Source of the DNA: an uncultured Opitutales bacterium
GTDB taxonomy: Bacteria; Verrucomicrobiota; Verrucomicrobiia; Opitutales; Intestinicryptomonadaceae
Assembly: GCA_934613415.1 (NCBI GenBank)
Contig: CAKTSY010000001.1
Span: 390,001 to 422,000 of the forward strand
Reading direction: 5' to 3'
Length of the DNA stretch: 32,000 nt
How positions within the stretch are numbered: position 1 is the first letter of the stretch; the number at the start of each line of letters is the position of its first letter. The notes under the pieces are model-generated. The model was not told where the DNA came from. It saw only the letters and a program-made list of their open reading frames with translations, and searched no databases. A program made the translations under genes and the position numbers. Shown in pieces: positions 2,563-28,953 of this stretch.

Positions 2563-2592
2563 AAAAAAAAGGGCTTGCCTTGCGGCAAGCCC
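2563..2592 (-). terminator. rho-independent terminator after the secretin gene
   Basis: On the minus strand the stem is GGGCTTGCC-GCAA-GGCAAGCCC (2571-2592), followed by T8 (the A-run 2563-2570 on the + strand). It lies 26 nt after the stop at 2618. Confidence 0.85.
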
Positions 2593-2617
2593 CACTTTCG
2601 AAAATATAACTAACTAA

Positions 2618-5479
2618 TTATTTTGTAGCGGCTGCTTCTTTTTCTACAGCTCTAATGCGCTTGATAGCTCCGCCAGGCGATACAACTATCGGGCTTTGAT
2701 ACAAGCTGCCGGGACGCATTGCCGAGAATTGTTCGTTTGCTATGCTGCCTCCTGGAGAGATTCTGTTGGCCGTTACGAATATCAACAAGTTTCTCTTTTG
2801 GCGAGTTTCGCCCTTCGATTTGAAGAGACGGCCCAACAAGGGGATATCGCCCAAAACGGGAACTTTGTCGTTTACTGTTTTAACTTCTTCGCGTGTTAAA
2901 CCGCCCAATACAACGGTTGCGCCGTCGAACACTGTAACCTTGGTGCGAACTTCGCGAACCGAGAATACAGGCTGAATGAAGCCCGAGGGAACTGTAACCG
3001 TTACATAGCCAGACAAGGCAACTGCAACGCCACCGTATTCCATAAAGCCTTCAAATTCGCTTACTGTGGGGTTCAACAATAGTGTTATAGAAGAGTCTTC
3101 TTCAACCGTGGGGGTAACTTCCATTACAACACCAACGTCGTATTTTACGAAGTCTTGCGGAGTACCGGGGGTGATTGTAACACCAGCTGCGCCGCCGCTT
3201 GTGCTTGTACCGGAAGATTGACCTACGTTAGATTGAACGTCGCCCCATTGTTCGGGATAACGCAATTCTTGCGAGATTCTGATTTGGGCTGTTTCGCCCG
3301 AAAGAACCGTTAGCTTGGGTGCGCAAAGCAAGTCGCTGCCTTGTTCTTGGCTGATTGCGGTAATTGCCATTCTGGCTTCAAAACCGTTGATTACGCCAAG
3401 GATTGTGTCGGCTGTGCTCATTGCATTCTTTGCCAAGTTAATCGACGAGGGAACGTCGGGAATGTTTTGGGCAACTTGGTCCTTTGTGGGAGCCGACAAA
3501 GTCGGGTCTGTATTGATGATGGTTGTGGGAACCGAACCCGCATTTGTTTGCGACTTAGTCATCGAAAGCAAACGGTTGTTCGAGTAGTCCAAGCTCTTAC
3601 CCATTTCGGTGTTGTAGGTTTGGAACAATGTTTCGGTTCTGCCGTCGGCTCTTACGCGAGACATATTGTAGTTGAATGCCAACTGGTCTAAGTTGCCCTG
3701 GTTTACTTCCATAAACTTGGTTTCAACTTCAACCTGTTTTACTTCGCTATAACGCTGCAATATGTTGCGGATCTTGTCCAAATTGCGGGGGGTGTTTGTT
3801 ACGATAATTGTAGTACCGTCGAATACCAAACCGCTTGCAGGGCCAAATTCTACGCCCGCTTTGGTGAGGAATTGCTTAATCATATCGTCTTTCTTATCGC
3901 CGCCGTCTGCCGAAGCTGCTGCATTGCTTGCAAAGGGATCGTTGCCGCCCTCGCCTTCGGCCTTAGTGCCCGAAATACCCAACATGCGGGTTACAGTTGC
4001 CTGCGACAAGGGGAACGAAACTGTGTCGGTCTGCAATGTGGGCTGGTTTTCTGCACCCTTGCGAACTACAACAACGTCGTCTTCAATATCGTAGGTGTAG
4101 GCTACTTGGCGTGTTGCAAAGTCTAAGATTTGACCCAATGTTGCGCCGCGCAATACCATAGAAACATTCTTGGCGTTGCTGCCTTCGGCTCCGTAAAGAA
4201 CCATATTAACACCCTTTTCGCCGTCTGTAGACTTATCGTATTCAACCGACAAAGTGGAGAGTGTGCTTACAACCTTTGCCAAGGGAACTTCCTGGAAGTT
4301 GGCTTCGGGGATAACAATTTCCTTCAACTTGGCAGCTACGGGAGAGGTTACTACACCCTTTTCGTTTGTTGCCAAAGTGCCCGAATAAACTTGGGGCAAT
4401 CTCCAAGCTTCGTTTACGTCGTTAAGCATCGAAGCCCTTGTGCTTTCAACCGTTTTGCGGCCAACTTTGTTGAGCTTTTCGGAGATAAGCTTAAGGTATG
4501 CCAAAGATTCTATGTTGTTGGAATCTAATGTACCAACCGAGCGGAATGTTATTGCAGCACCGTCGTAGTCGCCGTACAAGTACTGAATTTTGCCGCGCTT
4601 GATAAGGTTTTTAACTTCCTTTTGGCGTTCAACATATTCGGGACTTACCGATTCCAAAGTGTTCTTGTAGGGGTTTTCGTCGTCTCTAGCAATCTTGTCT
4701 GCCAAGCGCTTCGAGTCGGAGGAATTGTCGGATTTTTCGGCATAGTCTTGCGCATATTGTTTTGCGCTTGCAAAGTCGCCCTTGGCGGCTGCCGCTTTGG
4801 CGTTTTCTTTAGCCAACGCTGCTTTTACTGCCTTAATTTCCTTCTTGGCGTTCTTTACCAAGTCGGTTGCAGAGTCGCATTCTGCCAATTTGGCGTCTGC
4901 GGTAGAAATCTTTTGAGCTGCGTCTGCCAACTTTTCGTCGTCAATCAAAGTGTACGATTCGTCAATCAATTCGTATACCTTGTCTACAGTAAGCTTTTGC
5001 TTGTGTTCGGCTGCTGCCAATGCCTGGTCTACAGCTGCCTTTTCGGCTGCAATTTTAGCGTCTTTTGCCGCTTTTTCGTCTGCAACTTTTTTAGCTTCTG
5101 CCGCCGCTTTAGCTTCGGCGGCTTTCTTTACTTCGGCTGCCTTTTTGGCTTCTGCTACTTTCTTAGCTTCGGCCGCTTTTGCTGCAGCTTCTTTTGCCTT
5201 GGCTTCGGCAACTGCCTTGTTTTGAGCCTCTATAGCCGCATTTACGTCCATAAGAAGTTGCTGAACTGCCTTATCTTTGGGGGCAATTTTCAACAATTCT
5301 TCGAGGGATTTTTTAGATGTGGCCAAGTCGCCGCTGTCTCTAGCCTGTACAGCTGCAACCATTAGGCTTATTTTCTGCTGGGTTTTGTCTGCCTGCGCGT
5401 ACGACGATACCGCGAACGACAAGCCCGCGAATAGCACCACTGCAAAAGCAAGCAGCTTTTTAACTCGATTTCTTTTCAT
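2618..5479 (-). CDS. secretin (PilQ/GspD family outer-membrane channel) with a long N-terminal extension
   Basis: Sec signal MKRNRVKKLLAFAVVLFAGLSFAVSSYAQA. An N0-like domain is present (IVIPEANFQEVPLAKVVSTLS...LRGATLGQILDFATRQVAYTYDIEDDVVVV). The C-terminal secretin signature is VPVLGDIPLLGRLFKSKGETRQKRNLLIFVTANRI. Confidence 0.9.
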   Translation of the reverse strand: MKRNRVKKLLAFAVVLFAGLSFAVSSYAQADKTQQKISLMVAAVQARDSGDLATSKKSLEELLKIAPKDKAVQQLLMDVNAAIEAQNKAVAEAKAKEAAAKAAEAKKVAEAKKAAEVKKAAEAKAAAEAKKVADEKAAKDAKIAAEKAAVDQALAAAEHKQKLTVDKVYELIDESYTLIDDEKLADAAQKISTADAKLAECDSATDLVKNAKKEIKAVKAALAKENAKAAAAKGDFASAKQYAQDYAEKSDNSSDSKRLADKIARDDENPYKNTLESVSPEYVERQKEVKNLIKRGKIQYLYGDYDGAAITFRSVGTLDSNNIESLAYLKLISEKLNKVGRKTVESTRASMLNDVNEAWRLPQVYSGTLATNEKGVVTSPVAAKLKEIVIPEANFQEVPLAKVVSTLSTLSVEYDKSTDGEKGVNMVLYGAEGSNAKNVSMVLRGATLGQILDFATRQVAYTYDIEDDVVVVRKGAENQPTLQTDTVSFPLSQATVTRMLGISGTKAEGEGGNDPFASNAAASADGGDKKDDMIKQFLTKAGVEFGPASGLVFDGTTIIVTNTPRNLDKIRNILQRYSEVKQVEVETKFMEVNQGNLDQLAFNYNMSRVRADGRTETLFQTYNTEMGKSLDYSNNRLLSMTKSQTNAGSVPTTIINTDPTLSAPTKDQVAQNIPDVPSSINLAKNAMSTADTILGVINGFEARMAITAISQEQGSDLLCAPKLTVLSGETAQIRISQELRYPEQWGDVQSNVGQSSGTSTSGGAAGVTITPGTPQDFVKYDVGVVMEVTPTVEEDSSITLLLNPTVSEFEGFMEYGGVAVALSGYVTVTVPSGFIQPVFSVREVRTKVTVFDGATVVLGGLTREEVKTVNDKVPVLGDIPLLGRLFKSKGETRQKRNLLIFVTANRISPGGSIANEQFSAMRPGSLYQSPIVVSPGGAIKRIRAVEKEAAATK
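5033..5215 (-). repeat. in-frame degenerate 18-nt (6-aa) tandem repeats encoding an Ala/Lys/Glu-rich segment of the secretin
   Basis: Residues ~89-149 read AVAEAKAKEAAAKAAEAKKVAEAKKAAEVKKAAEAKAAAEAKKVADEKAAKDAKIAAEKAA. The periodicity is visible in the DNA as repeated gcttc(g/t)gc(c/t)gc units. Confidence 0.7.
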
Positions 5480-5544
5480 ATCTGTTAGTTGTATATTTTC
5501 GTTTAGTTAATAATTCAGACTATAACGTCTTTTTTATTTTTTAA

Positions 5545-5571
5545 AAGCTTTATTTTGTAAAATTTTTACAA
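5545..5571 (-). promoter_or_regulatory. conserved AT-rich motif (copy 2) upstream of the secretin gene, containing an 8-1-8 inverted repeat
   Basis: The minus-strand reading is TTGTAAAAATTTTACAAAATAAAGCTT. The 12-mer TTGTAAAAATTT and the downstream AAAGCTT are shared with 10052..10077. TTGTAAAA-A-TTTTACAA is palindromic. It lies in the only long (100 nt) intercistronic gap of the operon. Confidence 0.35.
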
Positions 5572-5579
5572 GTAAAGAA

Positions 5580-6464
5580 CTACTTAGTTTCAATGTCGTG
5601 TGCACCCGAAGCGTCTAGCTTCTTGGTAACAGTGCCCTTGCCTTCGGGCAAAGTCTGTTCAACAACAACAAAAGCATCGTCGAACGAAAGGTCTTTTACC
5701 GTGTAAACCGAATTGTTGTATTCGATTTTTTCGCCCTTGTTCTTTATAAGCCATTTTTGGTTCGGGTCTTTTGCCGACGCAATTTCTATGCGGCGTTCGG
5801 CGGGCAAAAGCGTGGGCTTGCCTGTAGAAATTTCTACGGGTTTGCTTAGGCGTTTGTCTTCAAAAACAACCGTCATACCAATAGTGATTGTGTTGTCGGC
5901 GTTCTTGGTTGTAAACTTTTTAAAGTCTAGCACCTTAAAGCCCAAATCTATGCGCCTTTTGCCGCTAATGTCGGTTGGGTCTTTAATTGAAATGGGAACG
6001 CCCTTTTTGCCGGTAAACTCCATATTGTTGTCGGCATTTTGGAACTGGAAAATCGGGTTTTCGGCCGAGCCTATGTAGCCTGTAAGCTTAATACCGTAAA
6101 CTGCGCTTGTAACCGACGCGAATTTGATTTCGAATGCGGTTTTTTCTTCGGCAACGGTAATGGGGGCTTCGGTTATGAATTTGCCGGATTTGTCTACCCA
6201 AATTTTCGGGGGCGTAAACAATTCAAAAAGCCAGTTAGCGTCTTCCGACTGTGCGGGCGGATTTTCCCACGCCATCGACTGCGAAATTGTAAACTTGGCG
6301 TCTTTGTCTACCCACTTTTCGCCCTGCGGGCCGCTTTGCAACGCCGCTTTCGCCTTCTTTTCGAATTTTGAAATGTTCGGGCTATTCAAGAAATAGAACG
6401 CCGCACTTGCCGCCAACACCAGTAGCGCCAATACAAAGCAAATTTTATCGTAATGTTTGTTCAT
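5580..6464 (-). CDS. bitopic inner-membrane protein, PilP/GspC-like (Amuc_1099 position)
   Basis: N-terminal TM segment ICFVLALLVLAASAAFYF, followed by beta-rich modules (LFELFTPPKIW..., YTVKDLSFDDAFVVVEQTLPEGKG). It sits immediately upstream of the secretin. AAGGA lies 8 nt before the ATG. Confidence 0.55.
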   Translation of the reverse strand: MNKHYDKICFVLALLVLAASAAFYFLNSPNISKFEKKAKAALQSGPQGEKWVDKDAKFTISQSMAWENPPAQSEDANWLFELFTPPKIWVDKSGKFITEAPITVAEEKTAFEIKFASVTSAVYGIKLTGYIGSAENPIFQFQNADNNMEFTGKKGVPISIKDPTDISGKRRIDLGFKVLDFKKFTTKNADNTITIGMTVVFEDKRLSKPVEISTGKPTLLPAERRIEIASAKDPNQKWLIKNKGEKIEYNNSVYTVKDLSFDDAFVVVEQTLPEGKGTVTKKLDASGAHDIETK

Positions 6465-6490
6465 ATATAAAATCCTTCAAAAAATTGCCG

Positions 6491-7507
6491 TTATTTGTTG
6501 TTTTCGGCGGCTTCAGGCGTAGGTTCGTCTTTAGCCATTTCAACATATTCTATTACAACCGTAAATTCCGACAAATTGTCGGTAATGATGGGTTCTTTTG
6601 CAGCGTCTTTGCCCTTTGCGGCTTCGTCTTGAGCCTTTTGCTCTTGCTCAAAAGAGTCTGCCGAAGCAACTTCGTCGGTAACGGGGCCGCCCAATTTTAC
6701 CTCTACCGAGCGCACAACAAGCATAATGTTGAAATCTTTAAGCTTGTTAAGGAAATTGCGCAATACGTCGGTTTGCGAAGTAAACGTAATTTTATACGCC
6801 AATGTGTCTATGCTGCCGTCTACCCTTGCCGAAACAATGTCGTCTATCTTAAAGGTGTCGGAGCTAGCCTGAGCCCTCTGGCGAACCCTTCTGGAACGGG
6901 TGTTACGCTTGTTGGCGTCGGCGGCGGCTTCTTCCTTCGAGATTTCTACGGGAATAACTTCGCGCATAACGCTATTTATTTTCATAGGCACGTTTTCTGC
7001 CTTAGAATCTATAAGCTGGTGCATTATGTAGCCCAAAACCGAGGCTTGCTTCCACAATTCGGGAACAGCTTCGTCTCTGGGAGGGTTAGAGCCTGCAACA
7101 TAATATTTCTTAAAGCCGAAATTTTCGTTTTCGTTTAAGTAAATATCTTTGCTTTTGGCTTCAGCCGTCCAAGAATCTACCATACCGCGCAAGGCTTCAA
7201 CAAATGCAAAGCCCTCCTTCATGGGAGCCGGCTTTATTATGTCGGAAGACGCGGGGCTTAAGCTTGTTACAAGCTTGTCTAGCTTGCCTTGAATGTATTT
7301 AATGTTTTGTTCAGACTTTTCTACCGATTCTACCGAAGGGTCTTCGTTTTGGGCGGTTCTAAATGCCGAAGCCGCCTTATTGTAGGCCTTTTCGGCTTTC
7401 GACAAATCGCCCAGCAAAACAACGTCGTATGCCGCGCCGCCAACAAAGGCCGCCAACAACAACGCTACTACGGCAAAAAATAGAGGGTGCTTTTTTATGT
7501 AATTCAT
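6491..7507 (-). CDS. Amuc_1100-like / PilO-like bitopic protein
   Basis: N-terminal TM segment PLFFAVVALLLAAFVGGAAY, then a coiled-coil region, then blocks that line up from memory with Akkermansia Amuc_1100. Examples are FGFKKYY vs LGFQVYS, VLRNFLNKLKDFNIMLVVRSVEVK vs VLKAMNAITGMQDYLFTVNSIRIR, and a C-terminal EFTVVIEYVEM vs VFVQVSLNLVHF, plus an acidic tail. Confidence 0.6.
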   Translation of the reverse strand: MNYIKKHPLFFAVVALLLAAFVGGAAYDVVLLGDLSKAEKAYNKAASAFRTAQNEDPSVESVEKSEQNIKYIQGKLDKLVTSLSPASSDIIKPAPMKEGFAFVEALRGMVDSWTAEAKSKDIYLNENENFGFKKYYVAGSNPPRDEAVPELWKQASVLGYIMHQLIDSKAENVPMKINSVMREVIPVEISKEEAAADANKRNTRSRRVRQRAQASSDTFKIDDIVSARVDGSIDTLAYKITFTSQTDVLRNFLNKLKDFNIMLVVRSVEVKLGGPVTDEVASADSFEQEQKAQDEAAKGKDAAKEPIITDNLSEFTVVIEYVEMAKDEPTPEAAENNK

Positions 7508-7549
7508 TTAAAATTCCTTTTTCTATTCAAGATTGCGCCGATAACAAAA

Positions 7550-9214
7550 TTATATGGGCTTTTTCTCGTTTACCAACAGTGTGAATGTAAACTTTAGCAC
7601 CCTCGGATTGGTCGGGTCTGTCTTTACATTCAAGTAGTCGGTTATGAAATCCGAATTTTTGAAAGTTTTTAGCAAGTCGGTTATGCGCTTGGTAGCAGCA
7701 GCCGAGTCGTAACGAGACGGGTCTTTGGGGTCTACATCGCGCAAAAGCAGGCGGCCTGTTACTTCAAGCTTATATTCGGCCTTTTTGCGGATATTGCCTT
7801 TTAAGTCTTTTACAGCCGCCGTTCTTACAACATTAAGGCCTTCAAGCCATACGTCTTTGGCGTCTACAATACGCTTTTCAAGATCTACAAAGAAATTCAT
7901 CCAATTCGACTTTGTGTTTGCCAAGCCTTCCAAGTCGCCGATTTTGGCAATAAGCTTGTTTACCTTTTCCTTGTTGGCAGCAACCTGCTCTATGCGTTCG
8001 TTCATTGCGGGAACGGCTTTGTTGAGCTCTTTAGTTAGGGTTTTGCGAGCCGAAATTGCATTATTTATATAAACAAAGGGCAAAATTGTAGAGCACGCCA
8101 AAATCAATGCCGAAACCATCAAAAGCGGGCGTTTTGCCTCGAAAGCCAAATGCGCGCCAATTTCGGGAGGCAAAAGATTTACGCCAACTGCCTTGTCGCC
8201 CAACACCAAGCGCGAAGCTTCGCCTATAAGTTCGCTTAGGGCTGCGGCGTTTGCATTTAAAATGTTGCCGTCTACTTTCGGGCTAATTGCCAAGTTTTCG
8301 AGCGGGTTAAGGTAGTCTACACTTACGCCTTGGTCTTCGCACAAAATCTGCGAAAAGTCGGGCAAAAGCGAACCGCGGCCCGTAAGGAAAATCTTCGAAA
8401 CAGGGTCTTTTACCTTGCGGCGATATGCCAATATGGAACGCTTAATTTCCATACTGATGCGCTTGATAACAGCCTTTTCGTTGTTCTTGAAAATGTCGGC
8501 TGCAGCGTCGGAAGAATTGTAGTTTGCCTCGTTCGAGTAGAAAGTTGTTTTAATGCCTTCGGTTTGCTGGAAGTTTTTGCCCAGCGAGTCGGCAATTGCC
8601 TGAGTAAGCGAGTTGCCGCCAATGGGAATGCTTCTTACAAAAAGCCCCTCGTCGCGCGAGATAATCATATTTGTGGTTCTAGCTCCCACATTAAGCATAA
8701 TCGCGTTTTCGGGCAAAGAGAATAGCTTCCAAGTGTTATAGTCTAACACCGACGAAGCTTCCAAAGATTCGGGAACAACGCCCGCCTGACTTATAGCGTC
8801 GCAAAAATCGTTTGCCGCCGACTTGCGCATAGAAACAAGCAATACTTCGGTTTCTACGCCGTCGTCGGAAATAACCTGATAGTCCCAAGTTACTTCGCTA
8901 AGGTCGTAGGGAATGTTCTTTGCGGCCTCAAAGCCGATAACTTCCTTTTGCCTGTCGCCGGTTACATGGGGAACCTGAATTGTTTTGGGCAATATAATGC
9001 TTGCTGGTGCAATAACAACCGCCTTGCCCGACAGGTTCATTTTTTTAAGTGCGCTTGTAAGAGCCGGCAACCATTGCGACTGGTCGGAATAATCGTAAAC
9101 CAGCTCTTCGGCGTAAAACTTTTCCAGAACAAGCTTTTTCGAGTCGCAGCTAAAAAGCCCCGCCGTTAGATAGGTTGTTCCGCAATTTATTATTAGTTTG
9201 CTTTTTGAAGCCAT
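7550..9214 (-). CDS. PilM-PilN fusion protein (actin-like ATPase domain + TM + PilN-like periplasmic part)
   Basis: The N-terminal ~340 aa are PilM-like (LIINCGTTYLTAGLF, LNVGARTTNMII, IPIGGNSLTQAIA). A TM helix follows (LLMVSALILACSTILPFVYI), then a coiled coil and a C-terminal ~130-aa domain. Confidence 0.8.
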   Translation of the reverse strand: MASKSKLIINCGTTYLTAGLFSCDSKKLVLEKFYAEELVYDYSDQSQWLPALTSALKKMNLSGKAVVIAPASIILPKTIQVPHVTGDRQKEVIGFEAAKNIPYDLSEVTWDYQVISDDGVETEVLLVSMRKSAANDFCDAISQAGVVPESLEASSVLDYNTWKLFSLPENAIMLNVGARTTNMIISRDEGLFVRSIPIGGNSLTQAIADSLGKNFQQTEGIKTTFYSNEANYNSSDAAADIFKNNEKAVIKRISMEIKRSILAYRRKVKDPVSKIFLTGRGSLLPDFSQILCEDQGVSVDYLNPLENLAISPKVDGNILNANAAALSELIGEASRLVLGDKAVGVNLLPPEIGAHLAFEAKRPLLMVSALILACSTILPFVYINNAISARKTLTKELNKAVPAMNERIEQVAANKEKVNKLIAKIGDLEGLANTKSNWMNFFVDLEKRIVDAKDVWLEGLNVVRTAAVKDLKGNIRKKAEYKLEVTGRLLLRDVDPKDPSRYDSAAATKRITDLLKTFKNSDFITDYLNVKTDPTNPRVLKFTFTLLVNEKKPI

Positions 9215-9241
9215 ATTTTTTTGAAGTTTTTTTATAAAATT

Positions 9242-9270
9242 TGGGCGGCAAAGCCCGCGCTTTGCGCCCA
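9242..9270 (-). promoter_or_regulatory. stable intercistronic stem-loop between the first gene of the operon and pilMN
   Basis: TGGGCG(G)CAAAG-CCCGCG-CTTTGCGCCCA forms an 11-bp GC-rich stem with one bulge. On the mRNA strand it is followed only by AATTTTAT, so there is no clean U-tract. Confidence 0.5.
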
Positions 9271-9285
9271 GTTTAAAAATTTACA

Positions 9286-10017
9286 CTATTCCAAAACCAA
9301 AGTAGAATCGTTCCTTGCCGATTTATACTCGTTTATCTTAACCGCAAAGGGGGCCTTTTCGAACGGAACCATTACGCCCTTGTTTGCATCTAGGTTGGCC
9401 ATTGCCTTTTCTACAAATGTTTTGCCCTGCGTACCCAAGCTGCAACGCTGTTTAATGTTGGTTTTTGTTAGCGGGTAGTTTGTGCCGTTTACAGAAAGGT
9501 CTACCAACCACGCGTAGGGAGCATCTTTAATTCTATATACCGAATAGGCTTCCCACGGAATATAGAATGTTACTGTGCTTTCTTTGTTGCGCTGCATTGC
9601 AAACAATGTTGCGCTAGAGCTAAACCAAACAAACTTGGGGCTTGAAGATGTGCTCATTTTTGCGTCTTCGTAGGCGCAAACAAGCTTTATATTTACGTTG
9701 CGAACCCAGTCGGGGTTTAGGTCGTTCTTTTCGGCATCGGGGTTGTCTATGCAGCGAAGCTTAACCGTTGCCTTTATCCAGTTATTGTTGCCGTTAATAT
9801 TTACCTTCTCAAACTTAACTGCACTTGTAAGCACAACAGGGTCTTTCTGGTTGCCCTTTGCGCCCTTTTTTGCACCGCGTTTTGCGGGGGCTTTTTGAGA
9901 GGAAGGCTCTAATTGCATATCGTCGGCATCGGCATTCTGCGTTTTATTTTGCGCAAAAACCGAACCTGACACACAAAAGAACAATAGGGAAAGTAAAGCA
10001 AAAATACGATAATTCAT
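9286..10017 (-). CDS. secreted hypothetical protein, first gene of the pilus-like operon (Amuc_1102 position)
   Basis: The Sec signal MNYRIFALLSLLFFCVSGSVFAQ starts at ATG 10017 (the track ORF extends to 10053). A Lys-rich linker follows, then a beta-rich domain. There is no class III (prepilin) signal. Confidence 0.6.
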   Translation of the reverse strand: MNYRIFALLSLLFFCVSGSVFAQNKTQNADADDMQLEPSSQKAPAKRGAKKGAKGNQKDPVVLTSAVKFEKVNINGNNNWIKATVKLRCIDNPDAEKNDLNPDWVRNVNIKLVCAYEDAKMSTSSSPKFVWFSSSATLFAMQRNKESTVTFYIPWEAYSVYRIKDAPYAWLVDLSVNGTNYPLTKTNIKQRCSLGTQGKTFVEKAMANLDANKGVMVPFEKAPFAVKINEYKSARNDSTLVLE

Positions 10018-10051
10018 AAGTTTGATTAAAACGGTAATAGTGTTTGTGTTC

Positions 10052-10077
10052 AAGCTTTTTTTACTAAATTTTTACAA
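10052..10077 (-). promoter_or_regulatory. conserved AT-rich motif (copy 1) upstream of the first operon gene
   Basis: The minus-strand reading is TTGTAAAAATTTAGTAAAAAAAGCTT, beginning 60 nt upstream of ATG 10017. It shares the 12-mer and AAAGCTT with 5545..5571. Confidence 0.35.
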
Positions 10078-10102
10078 AGCGTTGTTGCTTGCGCAAGCAC
10101 TG

Positions 10103-10768
10103 CTATTTCAACAAGCTGCGCAAGTTTTTTGAAATTTCGGTATAGGCTGCGCGCCTAAAGTGCAGCATATTTTTTCTGAACATATCTTTTTGGGGCGTTT
10201 TGTTTTGGTCGCAAACAACGGTGTTTACATCGAAAAACTCGATATTTTTGCCGCCCTTTTGCTTTATATACTCTGCCAAATTTGCGTTTACGGCGTCTAT
10301 TTTGCCAAAATATACGCTGCGCGCTGGGCTTTTTGGCACCGACAAAACAATTATTTTTGCATGGGGTAAATCGGCGCGCAGTTTTTCTAGCAAAGACTTA
10401 AAATCGCTAACAATCATTTCGGTTGCGCGCTTGCTGGCGCATTCGGCGTCGCCCGTACCAATAACTATTGTGGCGGGTTTGTATTTTAAGATAATGTCGT
10501 TGTAATATCTAAACAAATCCTGCACATTCGAACCGCCAAAGCCCCTGTTTATAACGCCAAATTCGGGAAAGCAATCGGCGGTTTTCCATATATTTATAAT
10601 GTCGGAACCCACAAAAAGCACGGCATTTTTCGGATACGAATTTTCAGAATCGTACTCTTTAAAGCTTGATATGGAACTTTGCCACCTAAGGTCTGTTCCC
10701 GTAGACGCCGCGCGCAGTTGGGGGATAATCGCGCACGCGAACAATAAAAGTAAAGCAGTAAATTTCAT
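10103..10768 (-). CDS. secreted SGNH/GDSL-family hydrolase (esterase)
   Basis: Signal peptide MKFTALLLLFACAIIPQLRAAS. The SGNH blocks are FVGSDIINIW (block I, GSD rather than GDS), NRGFGGSN (block II), IGTGDAE (block III) and NMLHF (block V, N-x-x-H rather than D-x-x-H). Confidence 0.65.
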   Translation of the reverse strand: MKFTALLLLFACAIIPQLRAASTGTDLRWQSSISSFKEYDSENSYPKNAVLFVGSDIINIWKTADCFPEFGVINRGFGGSNVQDLFRYYNDIILKYKPATIVIGTGDAECASKRATEMIVSDFKSLLEKLRADLPHAKIIVLSVPKSPARSVYFGKIDAVNANLAEYIKQKGGKNIEFFDVNTVVCDQNKTPQKDMFRKNMLHFRRAAYTEISKNLRSLLK

Positions 10769-10815
10769 TGAAACAAAAAGCTAAATATACATTCTTGCTT
10801 TTACAATAAAAAACT

Positions 10816-11631
10816 ATGGCTAACGCATTTTACAGGGGAAGAATTGCGCCAACGCCCTCGGGCTTTTTGCACAAGGGGCACTTAGAAACTTTTAAAACGG
10901 CGTATTTAAGGGCAAAAGAGGCACATGGTGCCCTAGTTTTGCGCATAGAAGACATAGACAAAGCCCGTTGCAAGCCAGAATATATAGCTCAATGTGTAGA
11001 AGACTTAAAACGTTTCGGCATTGTGTGCACCGAAGGCTACGGCATTGGCGGGCAGTTTGCGCCCTATCTGCAAAGCGAGCGTTTTGAATTATATAGGCAA
11101 ATTTTGGTTGTCCTAATAAAAAAAGGCTTGGCATACCCAAGCAATCTCAGCCGAAAAGAGATTGCCGAAAGCTGCCCCCTTTCGCGATACGACAAAAGCG
11201 AAAGAATCTTTAAAAAATCGCTTATAGACCCTTCGTATAAATTGGGAACTATTCCAAACAATTTCGAACAACTAAACTGGCGTTTTAACCTAAGCTATGC
11301 GCAAACATTTGCCTTTTACGACGCATTTGAAGGCATGCAAAAATTTACCGCGGGCGAAGACTTTGGCGACTTTCTTATTTGGCGCAAAGAAAACGCCCCT
11401 TCCTACGAGCTTGCGGTAGTTGTAGACGACCATTTTATGCAGATAAGCGAAGTTGTAAGGGGCAAAGACCTTTTGCTTAGCACCGCAAAACAAATGGCAA
11501 TATACAACGCTTTTGATTGGAAAATTCCAGCCTTTGCGCACTGCAAACTTTTGCTTGGCAAAGACGGCAAAAAGCTTTCGAAAAGCGTAATGAAAAAAAG
11601 CGACCCTAATTTGCTTATAAACCGCCGCTGA
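10816..11631 (+). CDS. gluQ: glutamyl-Q tRNA(Asp) synthetase (GluQRS, truncated GluRS paralogue)
   Basis: It has only a class I catalytic domain (271 aa). The HIGH motif reads LHKGH, followed by APYLQSER, YELAVVVDD, VVRGKDLL and KLSKS. Confidence 0.75.
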   Translation: MANAFYRGRIAPTPSGFLHKGHLETFKTAYLRAKEAHGALVLRIEDIDKARCKPEYIAQCVEDLKRFGIVCTEGYGIGGQFAPYLQSERFELYRQILVVLIKKGLAYPSNLSRKEIAESCPLSRYDKSERIFKKSLIDPSYKLGTIPNNFEQLNWRFNLSYAQTFAFYDAFEGMQKFTAGEDFGDFLIWRKENAPSYELAVVVDDHFMQISEVVRGKDLLLSTAKQMAIYNAFDWKIPAFAHCKLLLGKDGKKLSKSVMKKSDPNLLINRR

Positions 11632-11718
11632 TTTTGCTTGCATAAGCTTTGCTAAAAATGTAACGTGCCCGAGACGGAATTTAAGAAACATATTTACAAT
11701 TCTTATCGGGGAGCATTT

Positions 11719-14700
11719 ATGAAAATTTTAAACACGCTGAAATTTGCGGCTGTTTTGGGGTTTGTATTTTGCAATTATGCAAAAGGCGAAACCATATTCC
11801 AAATAGGCACGCCCGACTCTTTTGCCAAAGAGTTTAAAACATTTGCAAATTTAGCCGACGACCGCCACGCCTATAACCACGACTATTCTCAACCGCGGCG
11901 CACGTTTAGAGACGTAGACGGCTGCATAAAATTCTTTAACGATACAAAGCGCAGTTTCACTTTTGTTGTAGGCAAAAACAAAGACAAAGACTGGCCATTT
12001 GTACAACCAATTTCGGGCTGTCGCTGGAGCGGCTCTACGGAAGCTGCCGACTACGCAATTAAGTTCGACGCCCCAACAGCGAAAAACAACCCCGACAAAA
12101 CCTACATATTGAGAATAGGTCTAGCCGACGCGTATTGCCGCCACGACAATTTTTTGGACATATATTTGAACGGAAAAAAGCTTACCCGCATTGCAAATCC
12201 GCACAAGCTTAACTACGAAAAGGCGAACGTTTCGGCGGTGGTTGCATATCACCCCCAAACATGGGGCATTCCCGCGCTTTCAAAAATAAACATTCCCGCC
12301 AAAAGCCTGAAAGAAAAAGACAATTTAATAGAAATAAAACCCCACCGTTTTAAAAGTACAAACGCGGAAAGATGGGTTGCCTACGACTACATAAGCCTTT
12401 CCGACGACAAGCAAGACCCTAAAATAAAAGACCACCAAAAAGAGTTCGAGCAAAATGCGCTTAAAGCTCTCGGTTGCGACGAAGTTGTTTTTTGCGTAAG
12501 GTCGTCTAGCCGCGACCCCCATTGGTATGCAAACGTAGGCAAAAGCGTATACGCCAAAACCCCCGAAGGCGACTCGAAAGCCGACTTGTGGTTTAACAAG
12601 GAAATGTTTTCGCGCATGGGCGGCAAGCTTGTGCGCTACAACCTTAAAACGGGCGACTACGAATATATTCTAGACGACCCCGACGGCTCTGTACGCGACT
12701 GCAGGTTGCACTACGACGCAAAGAAAATTTTGTTTTCGTACAGAAAAGGAACCAGCGACCACTTTAAACTTTACGAAGTAGACATAGACGGCAAAAACTT
12801 AAAACTTTTGCCTATGACGGGCGACTGGGACGACTTTGAGCCCTGCTATATGCCAAATGGCGACATTCTTTACATTTCAAACCGCCAACCGAAAACGGTA
12901 CAGTGCCTTTTTGTGCCCGCAAACAATCTTCACAGGTGGTATTCAAAAGAAAATATGATACGCAACATAAGCGTTAATCCCGACCAAGACGACACCCCCG
13001 CCCTGCTAAAAGACGGCCGCGTTGTGTATATGCGTTGGGACTATAACCAGCGCAGCCAAGTTTCGTTCCACCATCTTTGGGCAATGAACCCCGACGGCTC
13101 GAACAACACCGTATTTTTGGGAAATAAAAGACCCGGAGGGCTTTTCTTGGCGGCAAAGCCCGTACCCGACAAAGACGAAGTTGTTTTCACCTTGGGCACA
13201 GGCCACGGGCAAACCGACTCGAGGGGCTTCCCCGCAAAAATGAAAATAGGGGCAGACCCTTCCGACGAGCACGCGTTCGACATTATAGTAGGCGGCTACT
13301 CAAACCAGTTTTTTGACCCCTTCCCGTTGGGTAAGGGTTTTTACCTTACAACCAACGGCAAAAACATTGTAATTATGGACGACTTCGGGCACATATTTAC
13401 CGGCTTTAAGCTGCCAAACGACCTCTTTAAAAGCGAGCACAAAGTTCTTACTTTAACCCACAAAAAAAACGTTCCCTGCAAAATGTTTATGCGCGACGTT
13501 CAGCCCCTAAGGCCGCGCCAGCGCGAATATCTTATCCCCGACAAGGCCGACTTTACAAAGAAAACCGCCGTAATTTCGCTTATAGACATCTACAACGGCA
13601 GAGAAATGCAATCGGTTAAAAAAGGCTCGGTTAAAAAGCTTTTAATAACCGAGGTTTTGCCCGAACCCGTGCACTACCACGGCGGAATGCACCCTATTTC
13701 GAACGGCGGCGGCTTTATTCTGGAAAGAATTTGGGGAACCGTTCCCGTAGAGGAAGACGGCAGCGCAATGTTTGAAGTTCCATCGGGCATGCCGCTTTCT
13801 TTTTCGGCGTTAGACAAAGACGGAAAACTCATAAAGAAAATGCAAAGCTCGGTGGGCTTTTCGCCCGCAACGTCTACAAGCTGCATAGGCTGCCACGAAA
13901 AGCGCACCGAGGCTCCAACTTTAACAAACACGCCTATGTCGTTTACAAAGGGCGTGCAAAAAATAACCCCGTTTAAGGGGCGCAAACAGCCCTTTGTTGT
14001 AGACCTAACGCGCGACTTGCAGCCCATATTCGACAAGCACTGTGTAAAATGCCATAACTCTGTTGATTTAAAAGGCTCGCTTTCGCTTGAAAAGGGGCTT
14101 AGCACAAACAACGTTTTAAACTATGTTGCCCTTTCAAAAAAAGGCCAATATAACGACGGCCGTAACCGCTGGGGCGAATCGGCGCCCTACTATTTCGGTT
14201 CGGGCTCTAGCAAGCTTATGGACAAAATTTCGGGAGGACACCATAATGTAAAGCTTAGCGACTACGAGCGCGAAAGCGTTATGCTGTGGCTCGACACTGG
14301 GGCTATGCAATCTGGCACATATGCCATACAAGGCACCGGCTTTTTAAGAATGAATTTTTATATGGCAATGACGGGCATAGACCTTAACAATATGCCCGAA
14401 ACAAAAGATTTTAACGATACAATAAAACGCCGCTGTATGGTTTGCCACAACAAAAACGGCGGACAAATGCGCTGGACAATAGGCGGCGTTGCCAAGTTGC
14501 CCACTCCCGACAAAAAAGGCAAACCAAGCAAAGTTGCAACCGACTTGCAGTTTAATTTCGACAATCCCGAACGCTCGATTTTTGTGCTTACCCCGCTTGC
14601 CAAAAGCGCGGGCGGACGCGCCGAAAAGAACGTGCACCCCGTTGTTTTTAAAGACAAAAAAGACGGCGACTACCAACTGATTATGTCGTTTTTAAACAAG

Positions 14701-14910
14701 TGCAAAGAGTGGCTAAGCCAAAACCGCCCATTCTACGACAAGCCCAATTTTAGACCCAACAAGGGATACACAATGGTTCTTCAAAAATGCGGCATAATTA
14801 AGAAAAACCTTAAAGACAAAACACCCATTCCCGCGTTCGAGTCCGACGAAAAATATTTTCAGTGGATACACGACACGCTATACGTTAAAGCTCCGCGTCC
14901 GAACAAATAA
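11719..14910 (+). CDS. large secreted beta-propeller protein with three C-terminal CXXCH (haem c) motifs
   Basis: GGGGAG lies 6 nt before ATG 11719, and the signal peptide is MKILNTLKFAAVLGFVFCNYAKG. TolB-like repeats are present (DPDGS, MPNGD, LKDGR, MNPDGS). The CXXCH motifs are CIGCH 13882-13896, CVKCH 14041-14055 and CMVCH 14434-14448. The context LQPIFDKHCVKCHNS...LKGSLSLE resembles the Planctomycete cytochrome C domain. Confidence 0.8.
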   Translation: MKILNTLKFAAVLGFVFCNYAKGETIFQIGTPDSFAKEFKTFANLADDRHAYNHDYSQPRRTFRDVDGCIKFFNDTKRSFTFVVGKNKDKDWPFVQPISGCRWSGSTEAADYAIKFDAPTAKNNPDKTYILRIGLADAYCRHDNFLDIYLNGKKLTRIANPHKLNYEKANVSAVVAYHPQTWGIPALSKINIPAKSLKEKDNLIEIKPHRFKSTNAERWVAYDYISLSDDKQDPKIKDHQKEFEQNALKALGCDEVVFCVRSSSRDPHWYANVGKSVYAKTPEGDSKADLWFNKEMFSRMGGKLVRYNLKTGDYEYILDDPDGSVRDCRLHYDAKKILFSYRKGTSDHFKLYEVDIDGKNLKLLPMTGDWDDFEPCYMPNGDILYISNRQPKTVQCLFVPANNLHRWYSKENMIRNISVNPDQDDTPALLKDGRVVYMRWDYNQRSQVSFHHLWAMNPDGSNNTVFLGNKRPGGLFLAAKPVPDKDEVVFTLGTGHGQTDSRGFPAKMKIGADPSDEHAFDIIVGGYSNQFFDPFPLGKGFYLTTNGKNIVIMDDFGHIFTGFKLPNDLFKSEHKVLTLTHKKNVPCKMFMRDVQPLRPRQREYLIPDKADFTKKTAVISLIDIYNGREMQSVKKGSVKKLLITEVLPEPVHYHGGMHPISNGGGFILERIWGTVPVEEDGSAMFEVPSGMPLSFSALDKDGKLIKKMQSSVGFSPATSTSCIGCHEKRTEAPTLTNTPMSFTKGVQKITPFKGRKQPFVVDLTRDLQPIFDKHCVKCHNSVDLKGSLSLEKGLSTNNVLNYVALSKKGQYNDGRNRWGESAPYYFGSGSSKLMDKISGGHHNVKLSDYERESVMLWLDTGAMQSGTYAIQGTGFLRMNFYMAMTGIDLNNMPETKDFNDTIKRRCMVCHNKNGGQMRWTIGGVAKLPTPDKKGKPSKVATDLQFNFDNPERSIFVLTPLAKSAGGRAEKNVHPVVFKDKKDGDYQLIMSFLNKCKEWLSQNRPFYDKPNFRPNKGYTMVLQKCGIIKKNLKDKTPIPAFESDEKYFQWIHDTLYVKAPRPNK

Positions 14911-28806: not shown

Positions 28807-28862
28807 TTAAAAATCTTGACTAACGCGTTATTATATAAATAGTCTTAACGCTTTATAAATTT

Positions 28863-28945
<83 letters not shown>

Positions 28946-28953
28946 TTGTTTAT

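Follow-up and report, generated by a model that had tools for sequence, protein, structure and literature searches.

A five-gene secretin operon of gut Opitutales as a probable divergent counterpart of the Akkermansia mucin utilization locus 2

What kind of machine is encoded by a secretin operon that has no pilin or motor gene beside it? The question is raised by a stretch of 32,000 nucleotides (nt), here called the window, from an uncultured Opitutales bacterium (contig CAKTSY010000001.1 of assembly GCA_934613415.1, positions 390,001 to 422,000), a member of an order that sits in class Opitutia of the Verrucomicrobiota. The minus strand of the window carries five co-directional open reading frames (ORFs), g1 to g5, with products of 243, 554, 338, 294 and 953 amino acids (aa), and the intergenic gaps from g1 to g5 are 71, 42, 26 and 100 nt, in that order. 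A hydropathy scan placed N-terminal signal peptides on g1 and g5, one internal transmembrane (TM) helix in g2 and one N-terminal TM helix each in g3 and g4; together with the ORF positions, this agrees with the coordinates, sizes, gaps and architectures given in an earlier annotation made from the sequence alone (the first-pass annotation). The locus is probably an Opitutales orthologue of mucin utilization locus 2 (MUL2) of Akkermansia muciniphila and would encode the alignment scaffold and secretin of a type IV filament-like machine that serves glycan foraging. The five genes form an operon that is conserved across Opitutales, and their products have homologies and domain architectures that can be followed gene by gene.

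MUL2 is the name given to the Akkermansia cluster Amuc_1102 to Amuc_1098 (bioRxiv 10.64898/2025.12.30.696933, PMC12418764), in which Amuc_1102 is MUL2A and Amuc_1101 is MUL2B. The products of the cluster are abundant envelope proteins (PMC4960237, PMC5332112), and the locus, which includes Amuc_1100, is of medical interest. The first-pass annotation regarded the mechanism and substrate of this cluster as not established. That view is outdated: according to later articles that quote the work (PMC13174399, PMC12418764 and bioRxiv 10.64898/2025.12.30.696933), Davey et al. (2023) reported that mucin acquisition requires MUL2, and accumulation of mucin in internal compartments needs MUL genes (PMC12418764). 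In the account of Xiang et al. (2021), the crystal structure of Amuc_1102 has an Ig-like fold related to an archaeal type IV pilus. Synteny of MUL2 in Akkermansiaceae and other Verrucomicrobiales has been linked to fucoidan uptake (2026 ISME J, PMC13174399); conservation of the locus is lower in Chthoniobacterales, Methylacidiphilales lack it, and Opitutales are not discussed with regard to MUL2 in the text or supplements of that article (PMC13174399).

Loci of A. muciniphila were fetched from metagenomes using, as the Amuc_1100 query, a 162-aa stretch rebuilt from a PDB alignment. In one such locus (L089; Table 1), the gene order 1102-1101-1100-1099-1098 is identical to that of g1 to g5 in the window. 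The window and Akkermansia MUL2 thus share five genes, their order, orientation and architectures, and every gene has detectable homology: g2, g3 and g5 match directly, and g1 and g4 do so through family profiles, with g1 additionally matching through its predicted fold. They differ in host class (Opitutia versus Verrucomicrobiia), in sequence, with identities of just 23–27% where alignable, and in the lengths of g2 (554 versus 612 aa) and g4 (294 versus 337 aa).

The second gene, g2, matched Pfam PilM_2 (E 2.7e-25), had Amuc_1101_fam (NF045709) as its top NCBIfam match (E 2.2e-71) and aligned with Amuc_1101 by BLASTP at 27% over 380 aa (E 9e-39). A profile of 13 homologues matched Myxococcus PilM (3JC8_Ma) at positions 50–339 (E 1e-37) and Myxococcus PilN (3JC8_Na) at positions 349–462 (E 1.1e-4). 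The protein can accordingly be divided into a cytoplasmic actin-like PilM domain (aa ~1–354), a TM helix (aa 365–387) and a periplasmic PilN-like segment (~349 to at least 462). Because the PilM and PilN profile matches are separate, we take the PilM–PilN fusion in g2 to be real, as judged from sequence.

These matches would also suit an ordinary type IVa pilus (T4aP) pilMNOPQ operon, whose products build retractile pili that serve in twitching, adhesion or the uptake of DNA, with g1 as an accessory and no special link to glycans. NCBI annotates g2 as PilM, a secretin is encoded, and the window resembles the PilMNOPQ systems of Pseudomonas aeruginosa and Myxococcus xanthus (3JC8) in its actin-like PilM domain, PilN-like segment, secretin, operon organization and separation from pilA/pilBCD. 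Unlike those systems, PilM and PilN are fused in g2, and the other four genes, discussed below, depart further from the T4aP pattern; we consider this reading unlikely. A fused g2 also recalls the type II secretion system (T2SS). If g2, g3, g4 and g5 were GspL-, GspM-, GspC- and GspD-like, the locus would be the outer half of a T2SS-like system, exporting glycoside hydrolases or exoproteins and having no external pilus. The topologies of g2 to g4 do parallel GspL (actin-like cytoplasmic domain, TM helix and periplasmic ferredoxin-like domain), GspM and the bitopic GspC, as these are generally known, but g2 matches PilM and not GspL, and no T2SSL match was found in g2. We rate a T2SS-like half-system as quite improbable.

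The secretin, g5, bears on both of these alternatives. It is built, in order, of a signal peptide, an Ala/Lys-rich stretch, a TPR-like N-region, N-domains and a secretin domain at aa 708–904 (nt 2768–3358; Pfam Secretin, E 6e-36). It matched NCBIfam Amuc_1098_fam (NF042912, E 9.4e-114) and aligned with Amuc_1098 by BLASTP at 27% over 822 aa (E 1e-66), in an alignment that is collinear and takes in the N-terminal TPR-like region. Unlike Amuc_1098, it has an extra stretch of Ala/Lys/Glu-rich low complexity at aa ~80–165 (of 86 residues, 36 are Ala and 19 Lys), which the alignment with Amuc_1098 does not cover. The solved secretins closest to g5 are T2SS GspD types (~1e-16), with PilQ at 1e-12 to 1e-14, and its best non-Amuc NCBIfam match is the GspD model TIGR02517 (E 9e-36). 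That nearness to GspD speaks for a T2SS-like system, as does the description of MUL2 as 'similar to a secretion system' (PMC13174399), but the GspD score (123.5 bits) is far under the cut-off of 351. For a T4aP operon the secretin fits less well: GspD and MshL models score above PilQ, the PilQ model TIGR02515 reached 91.6 bits against a cut-off of 284, and, unlike T4aP secretins, g5 has a TPR N-region and no AMIN domain detected in a Pfam search.

The middle gene, g3, matched NCBIfam Amuc_1100_fam (NF038287, E 9.8e-23) and aligned with Amuc_1100 by BLASTP at 25% over 195 aa (E 3e-4). The best PDB matches of its profile (63 sequences) were two crystal structures of Amuc_1100, 6LAD and 6KNY (E 0.011), and it carries a precomputed assignment to Pfam PF28028 'Amuc_1100', an accession newer than the Pfam copy that we searched. 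NCBI labels in the metagenome-assembled genome (MAG) SUG3736 agree, the g3 homologue, 97% identical, being an 'Amuc_1100 family pilus-like protein', g2 PilM, and g1 and g4 'hypothetical'. The structure of Amuc_1100 is said to resemble that of PilO/PilN (bioRxiv 10.64898/2025.12.30.696933), a fold reported for Amuc_1100 only. A PilO match to g3 was absent in Pfam, NCBIfam and PDB sequences. Where T4aP has PilO, the window has this Amuc_1100-family protein; the match of g3 to GspM was not significant either (E 0.2), which counts against a T2SS-like system.

The PilP position is held by g4. Homologues of g1 and g4 were sought with a concatenated profile of g1 and g4(1–180), balanced on local score distributions; this search yielded many g1-type proteins and just five of g4 type, and the g4 alignment was taken from an exhaustive representative search. 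Since 30 of 59 g4-family members matched NCBIfam Amuc_1099_fam (NF042425; best E 3.5e-9) and no rival family appeared, we assign g4 to the Amuc_1099 family by profile homology, in keeping with a BLASTP alignment to Amuc_1099 of 23% over the 95 N-terminal aa (E 0.002). The AlphaFold2 (AF2) model of g4 is confident (pLDDT 91.4) and predicts a TM helix joined by a linker to an all-beta periplasmic domain at aa ~113–290. An FTPPxIW motif in the linker between helix and beta domain (aa 83–89) is invariant among the 59 to 95 family members compared and may be a docking peptide; Amuc_1099 reads 'VAPNLW' where this motif aligns. None of 95 g4-family members matched any Pfam family, PilP included, the g4 model had no fold match in the PDB at E ≤ 1e-3, and a topology scan found no lipobox, the protein being bitopic instead. 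Where T4aP has PilP, the window thus has a bitopic protein of unmatched fold with no PDB sequence match, and the lack of any GspC or HR-domain match counts in the same way against a T2SS-like system. A PilP- or GspC-like naming of g4 derives solely from operon position and topology.

The first gene, g1, completes the comparison. Among Opitutales g1-family members, 18 of 51 matched NCBIfam Amuc_1102_rel (NF042424; best E 4.4e-6), again with no rival family. BLASTP of g1 against Amuc_1102 gave no significant alignment; hhalign of the same pair gave 69% probability (E 4.5e-5) over 99 collinear columns. The AF2 model (mean pLDDT 73.5, core ~80–93) is a seven-stranded beta-sandwich with helices, with an Ig-like core at aa ~61–236. 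In a Foldseek search of the PDB, its top three matches were the three 7DSZ chains (crystal structure of Amuc_1102; best E 1.6e-4, probability 1.0), and no other PDB entry matched at E ≤ 1e-3. From profiles and predicted fold, g1 is judged to be a divergent member of the Amuc_1102 (MUL2A) family. The g1 alignment (A8, 64 rows) wrongly includes one g4-type protein (P0184). Two g1-type proteins, P0126 and P0139, carry a precomputed Pfam PF28178 assignment, an accession that postdates the Pfam copy searched. To our knowledge, canonical pilMNOPQ operons have no g1-like first gene, and the retention of g1 as first operon gene across two classes, an extra conserved gene relative to T4aP, speaks against the T4aP reading.

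Taken over all five genes, the identity with Amuc_1102 to Amuc_1098 that the first-pass annotation had proposed holds, through BLASTP, NCBIfam family scans, hhalign and the 7DSZ fold. Its naming of g5 as a secretin was likewise borne out by the Pfam match, and its PilM–PilN fusion by the two 3JC8 profile matches. A PilP-like label for g4 was backed by none of the sequence and fold tests.

To follow the operon across genomes, we scanned for relatives with one genome per species and obtained 80 loci with flanks of up to 10 kb, all from Verrucomicrobiota. Their hosts are gut Opitutales, Puniceicoccaceae, Coraliomargaritaceae, Cerasicoccus, Thalassobacterium, Ruficoccus and Lentimonas. The closest genome records are human-gut Opitutales MAGs (JAXFOH01, isolate SUG3736, 99%; a Hadza gut MAG, 97%), and metagenomic contigs as long as 594 kb carry identical proteins. 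The order g1-g2-g3-g4-g5 is kept in virtually all 80 loci, and the genes that flank the operon in the window are common only to the two closest relatives. Because the order recurs across the 80 loci while the flanks vary, the five-gene block is a conserved unit, well beyond a chance grouping.

The first-pass annotation had found no pilin, ATPase or platform gene near the operon, had read this as an oddity, and had allowed that a canonical pilin-ATPase-platform set might adjoin the window. No class III prepilin motif was present in the six frames of the window, and no pilin, ATPase or platform gene lay in the 10 kb past either window end (~48 kb of the 281-kb source contig examined). The absence is therefore confirmed for the window and 10 kb on each side, and an ordinary T4aP locus split by the window is ruled out. 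PilB/GspE-type Walker A proteins were absent from the 80 loci and their flanks, where the only Walker A matches were ABC-transporter ATPases of ~230 aa, and gspE, gspF and gspG–K were adjacent in 0 of 80 loci, a further point against a T2SS-like system. The sole class III signal in the 80 loci is a prepilin gene 3 kb downstream of a secretin gene. Linkage to pilin or motor genes among relatives is thus ruled out, the 80 loci offering one lone prepilin and ABC-type Walker A proteins. Five representative Akkermansia loci had no pilin, ATPase or platform gene within 10 kb, so that neither organism has pilin or ATPase genes linked to the cluster. Classically, operons of pilMNOPQ type lie apart from pilA/pilBCD, as in P. 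aeruginosa, and this likeness to model T4aP organisms counts for the T4aP reading. Since the same layout is found in pilMNOPQ operons, in the 80 loci and in Akkermansia, the missing neighbours are not anomalous: pilMNOPQ-type operons are as a rule unlinked, and so is the MUL2-type system in both classes examined. Of the earlier picture, in which an orphan module had neither a known cargo nor a known energy source, the lack of pilin and motor genes nearby stands; that lack as an anomaly does not, and a role has been reported for MUL2.

Two observations concern individual relatives. The lone prepilin gene lies in a Coraliomargaritaceae MAG (L085, 19297–20010, plus strand) and matched N_methyl (E 4.6e-7) and, weakly, PilW_C. 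An ABC-type ATPase (~230 aa, Walker A GESGSGKTT) is encoded ~1–1.5 kb upstream of the g2 homologue in L044, L053, L056, L067, L073 and L083.

The unlinked layout also bears on whether the five genes might suffice by themselves. A self-contained module without pilins or pilus ATPase, in which the secretin, the inner-membrane scaffold and g1 make up a conduit, or a fibre built of g1, that might for instance import glycans, would agree with the five genes travelling together as the sole conserved unit, with the Sec rather than class III signal of g1, and with the absence of linked pilin and ATPase genes from the 80 loci (bar one lone prepilin) and the five Akkermansia loci. The Akkermansia homologue of g1 has been likened to a type IV pilin domain of archaea and modelled as a homotrimer, and MUL genes are tied to internal-compartment uptake (PMC12418764). 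Set against this, Akkermansia encodes and expresses type IV and type II pilins elsewhere, and those needed in vivo (Amuc_1523-24, 1583, 0394 and 0745) sit away from the cluster (bioRxiv 10.64898/2025.12.30.696933). One relative (L085) has a prepilin 3 kb from its secretin. A PilM domain usually couples to PilB/PilC, and we know of no secretin system that runs without a cytoplasmic ATPase and pilin-like subunits. We give an autonomous module little credence. If it were true, a secretin would be used for import, with no need of class III pilins or a PilB-type ATPase; the wider form of the idea, a phylum-wide self-sufficient envelope machine with g1/MUL2A as fibre or gate that moves glycans inward, is equally a long shot.

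The reading of the locus as an Opitutales MUL2 has points that weigh against it. The window copies of g1 and g4 had no direct match in Pfam, NCBIfam (including NF042424 for g1 and NF042425 for g4) or PDB sequences. The hhalign comparison of g4 with Amuc_1099 was weak (17% probability), and the match of g1 to 7DSZ was moderate (TM 0.44–0.56, rmsd 5.8 Å, 10% identity). The direct NCBIfam scores all lie below the equivalog cut-offs, at 241.5 bits against 650 for g2, 81.1 against 180 for g3 and 381 against 750 for g5; because they fall so far under, g2, g3 and g5 are distant relatives and not close orthologues of the Akkermansia proteins. The glycan-foraging role would be carried over by analogy from another class, Verrucomicrobiia, by way of secondary citations, and pilin, ATPase and platform partners elsewhere in the genome would likewise be placed there by analogy.

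On the MUL2 reading, a cytoplasmic actin-like PilM domain joined to a bitopic PilN-like protein in g2 would be partnered in the inner membrane by the PilO/PilN-like, Amuc_1100-family g3. The third bitopic protein, g4, would take the PilP/GspC position, although unrelated to PilP/GspC in the tests run, with its periplasmic all-beta domain probably bridging to the secretin. The outer-membrane secretin g5 would have a built-in TPR, pilotin-like N-region, and g1 would be a Sec-exported, Ig-like component of the Amuc_1102 family. Prepilins, prepilin peptidase, platform protein and a PilB/GspE-type ATPase would be supplied from elsewhere in the genome, as for pilMNOPQ operons and in Akkermansia. By analogy with MUL2, the machine may serve at the cell surface to capture or take up glycans of host or dietary origin.

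Such an architecture is intermediate between T4aP and T2SS, with PilM and PilN matches on one side and a GspL-like fusion, a GspC-like bitopic protein and a GspD-nearest secretin on the other. The likeness to T2SS lies in the fused g2, the bitopic partners and the secretin domain; unlike T2SS, the window has no GspL, GspM or GspC family match and its operon has no gspE, gspF or pseudopilin genes. The locus is a divergent addition to the known, named MUL2 system in a second verrucomicrobial class and not a new kind of machine. The same five-gene machine, strongly diverged, occurs in a human-gut Opitutales lineage and many marine relatives, which suggests a general verrucomicrobial glycan-foraging device and not an Akkermansia speciality. 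The comparison places two proteins that public records call 'hypothetical' in the Amuc_1102 and Amuc_1099 families and provides deep comparative data, including the invariant FTPPxIW motif and a confident fold for an Amuc_1099-type protein.

Table 1. Features of the operon in the window and of the corresponding A. muciniphila locus (coordinates in nt)
Feature	Sequence	Coordinates	Strand	Description
g1	window	9286..10017	-	243 aa from ATG; Sec-exported, judged divergent Amuc_1102 (MUL2A) family
g2	window	7550..9214	-	554 aa; PilM-PilN fusion by sequence, Amuc_1101 family
g3	window	6491..7507	-	338 aa; bitopic, Amuc_1100 family, putative PilO/PilN-like partner
g4	window	5580..6464	-	294 aa; bitopic, Amuc_1099 family by profile
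g5	window	2618..5479	-	953 aa; outer-membrane secretin, Amuc_1098 family
terminator-like hairpin	window	2570..2593	-	10-bp stem, 7 GC pairs, then TTTTTTTGTT (T-run)
Amuc_1102	L089 (A. muciniphila)	7274-7990		
Amuc_1101	L089 (A. muciniphila)	8037-9875		
Amuc_1100	L089 (A. muciniphila)	9905-10858		
Amuc_1099	L089 (A. muciniphila)	10894-11907		
Amuc_1098	L089 (A. muciniphila)	11979-14699		

The operon is closed by the strong terminator-like hairpin, which lies ~25 nt past the g5 stop. For g1, the ORF list reaches a TTG at 10053; gene callers on the source contig take the ATG used here. Rfam and tRNA scans detected no RNA feature inside the operon, and the sole RNA gene that they found in the window is a tRNA-Leu (anticodon TAA) at 28862–28946 on the plus strand. 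The other genes of the window are housekeeping genes, among them those for SecA, Lnt, GlnRS, ribosomal protein S1, FolC, RpoN and alanine racemase.

Two further genes near the operon encode secreted proteins. A GDSL-family acylhydrolase gene (10103–10768) lies upstream of g1, 85 nt away and likewise on the minus strand; because it is common only to the two closest relatives, it is probably outside the conserved five-gene unit. Two genes upstream of the operon, and divergent from it, is a gene for a secreted protein of 1081 aa (11665–14910, plus strand), in which a PL4 CBM-like domain (E 3.8e-20) is joined with a hydrazine-synthase alpha middle domain (E 5.7e-19) and three CxxCH motifs for haem binding.

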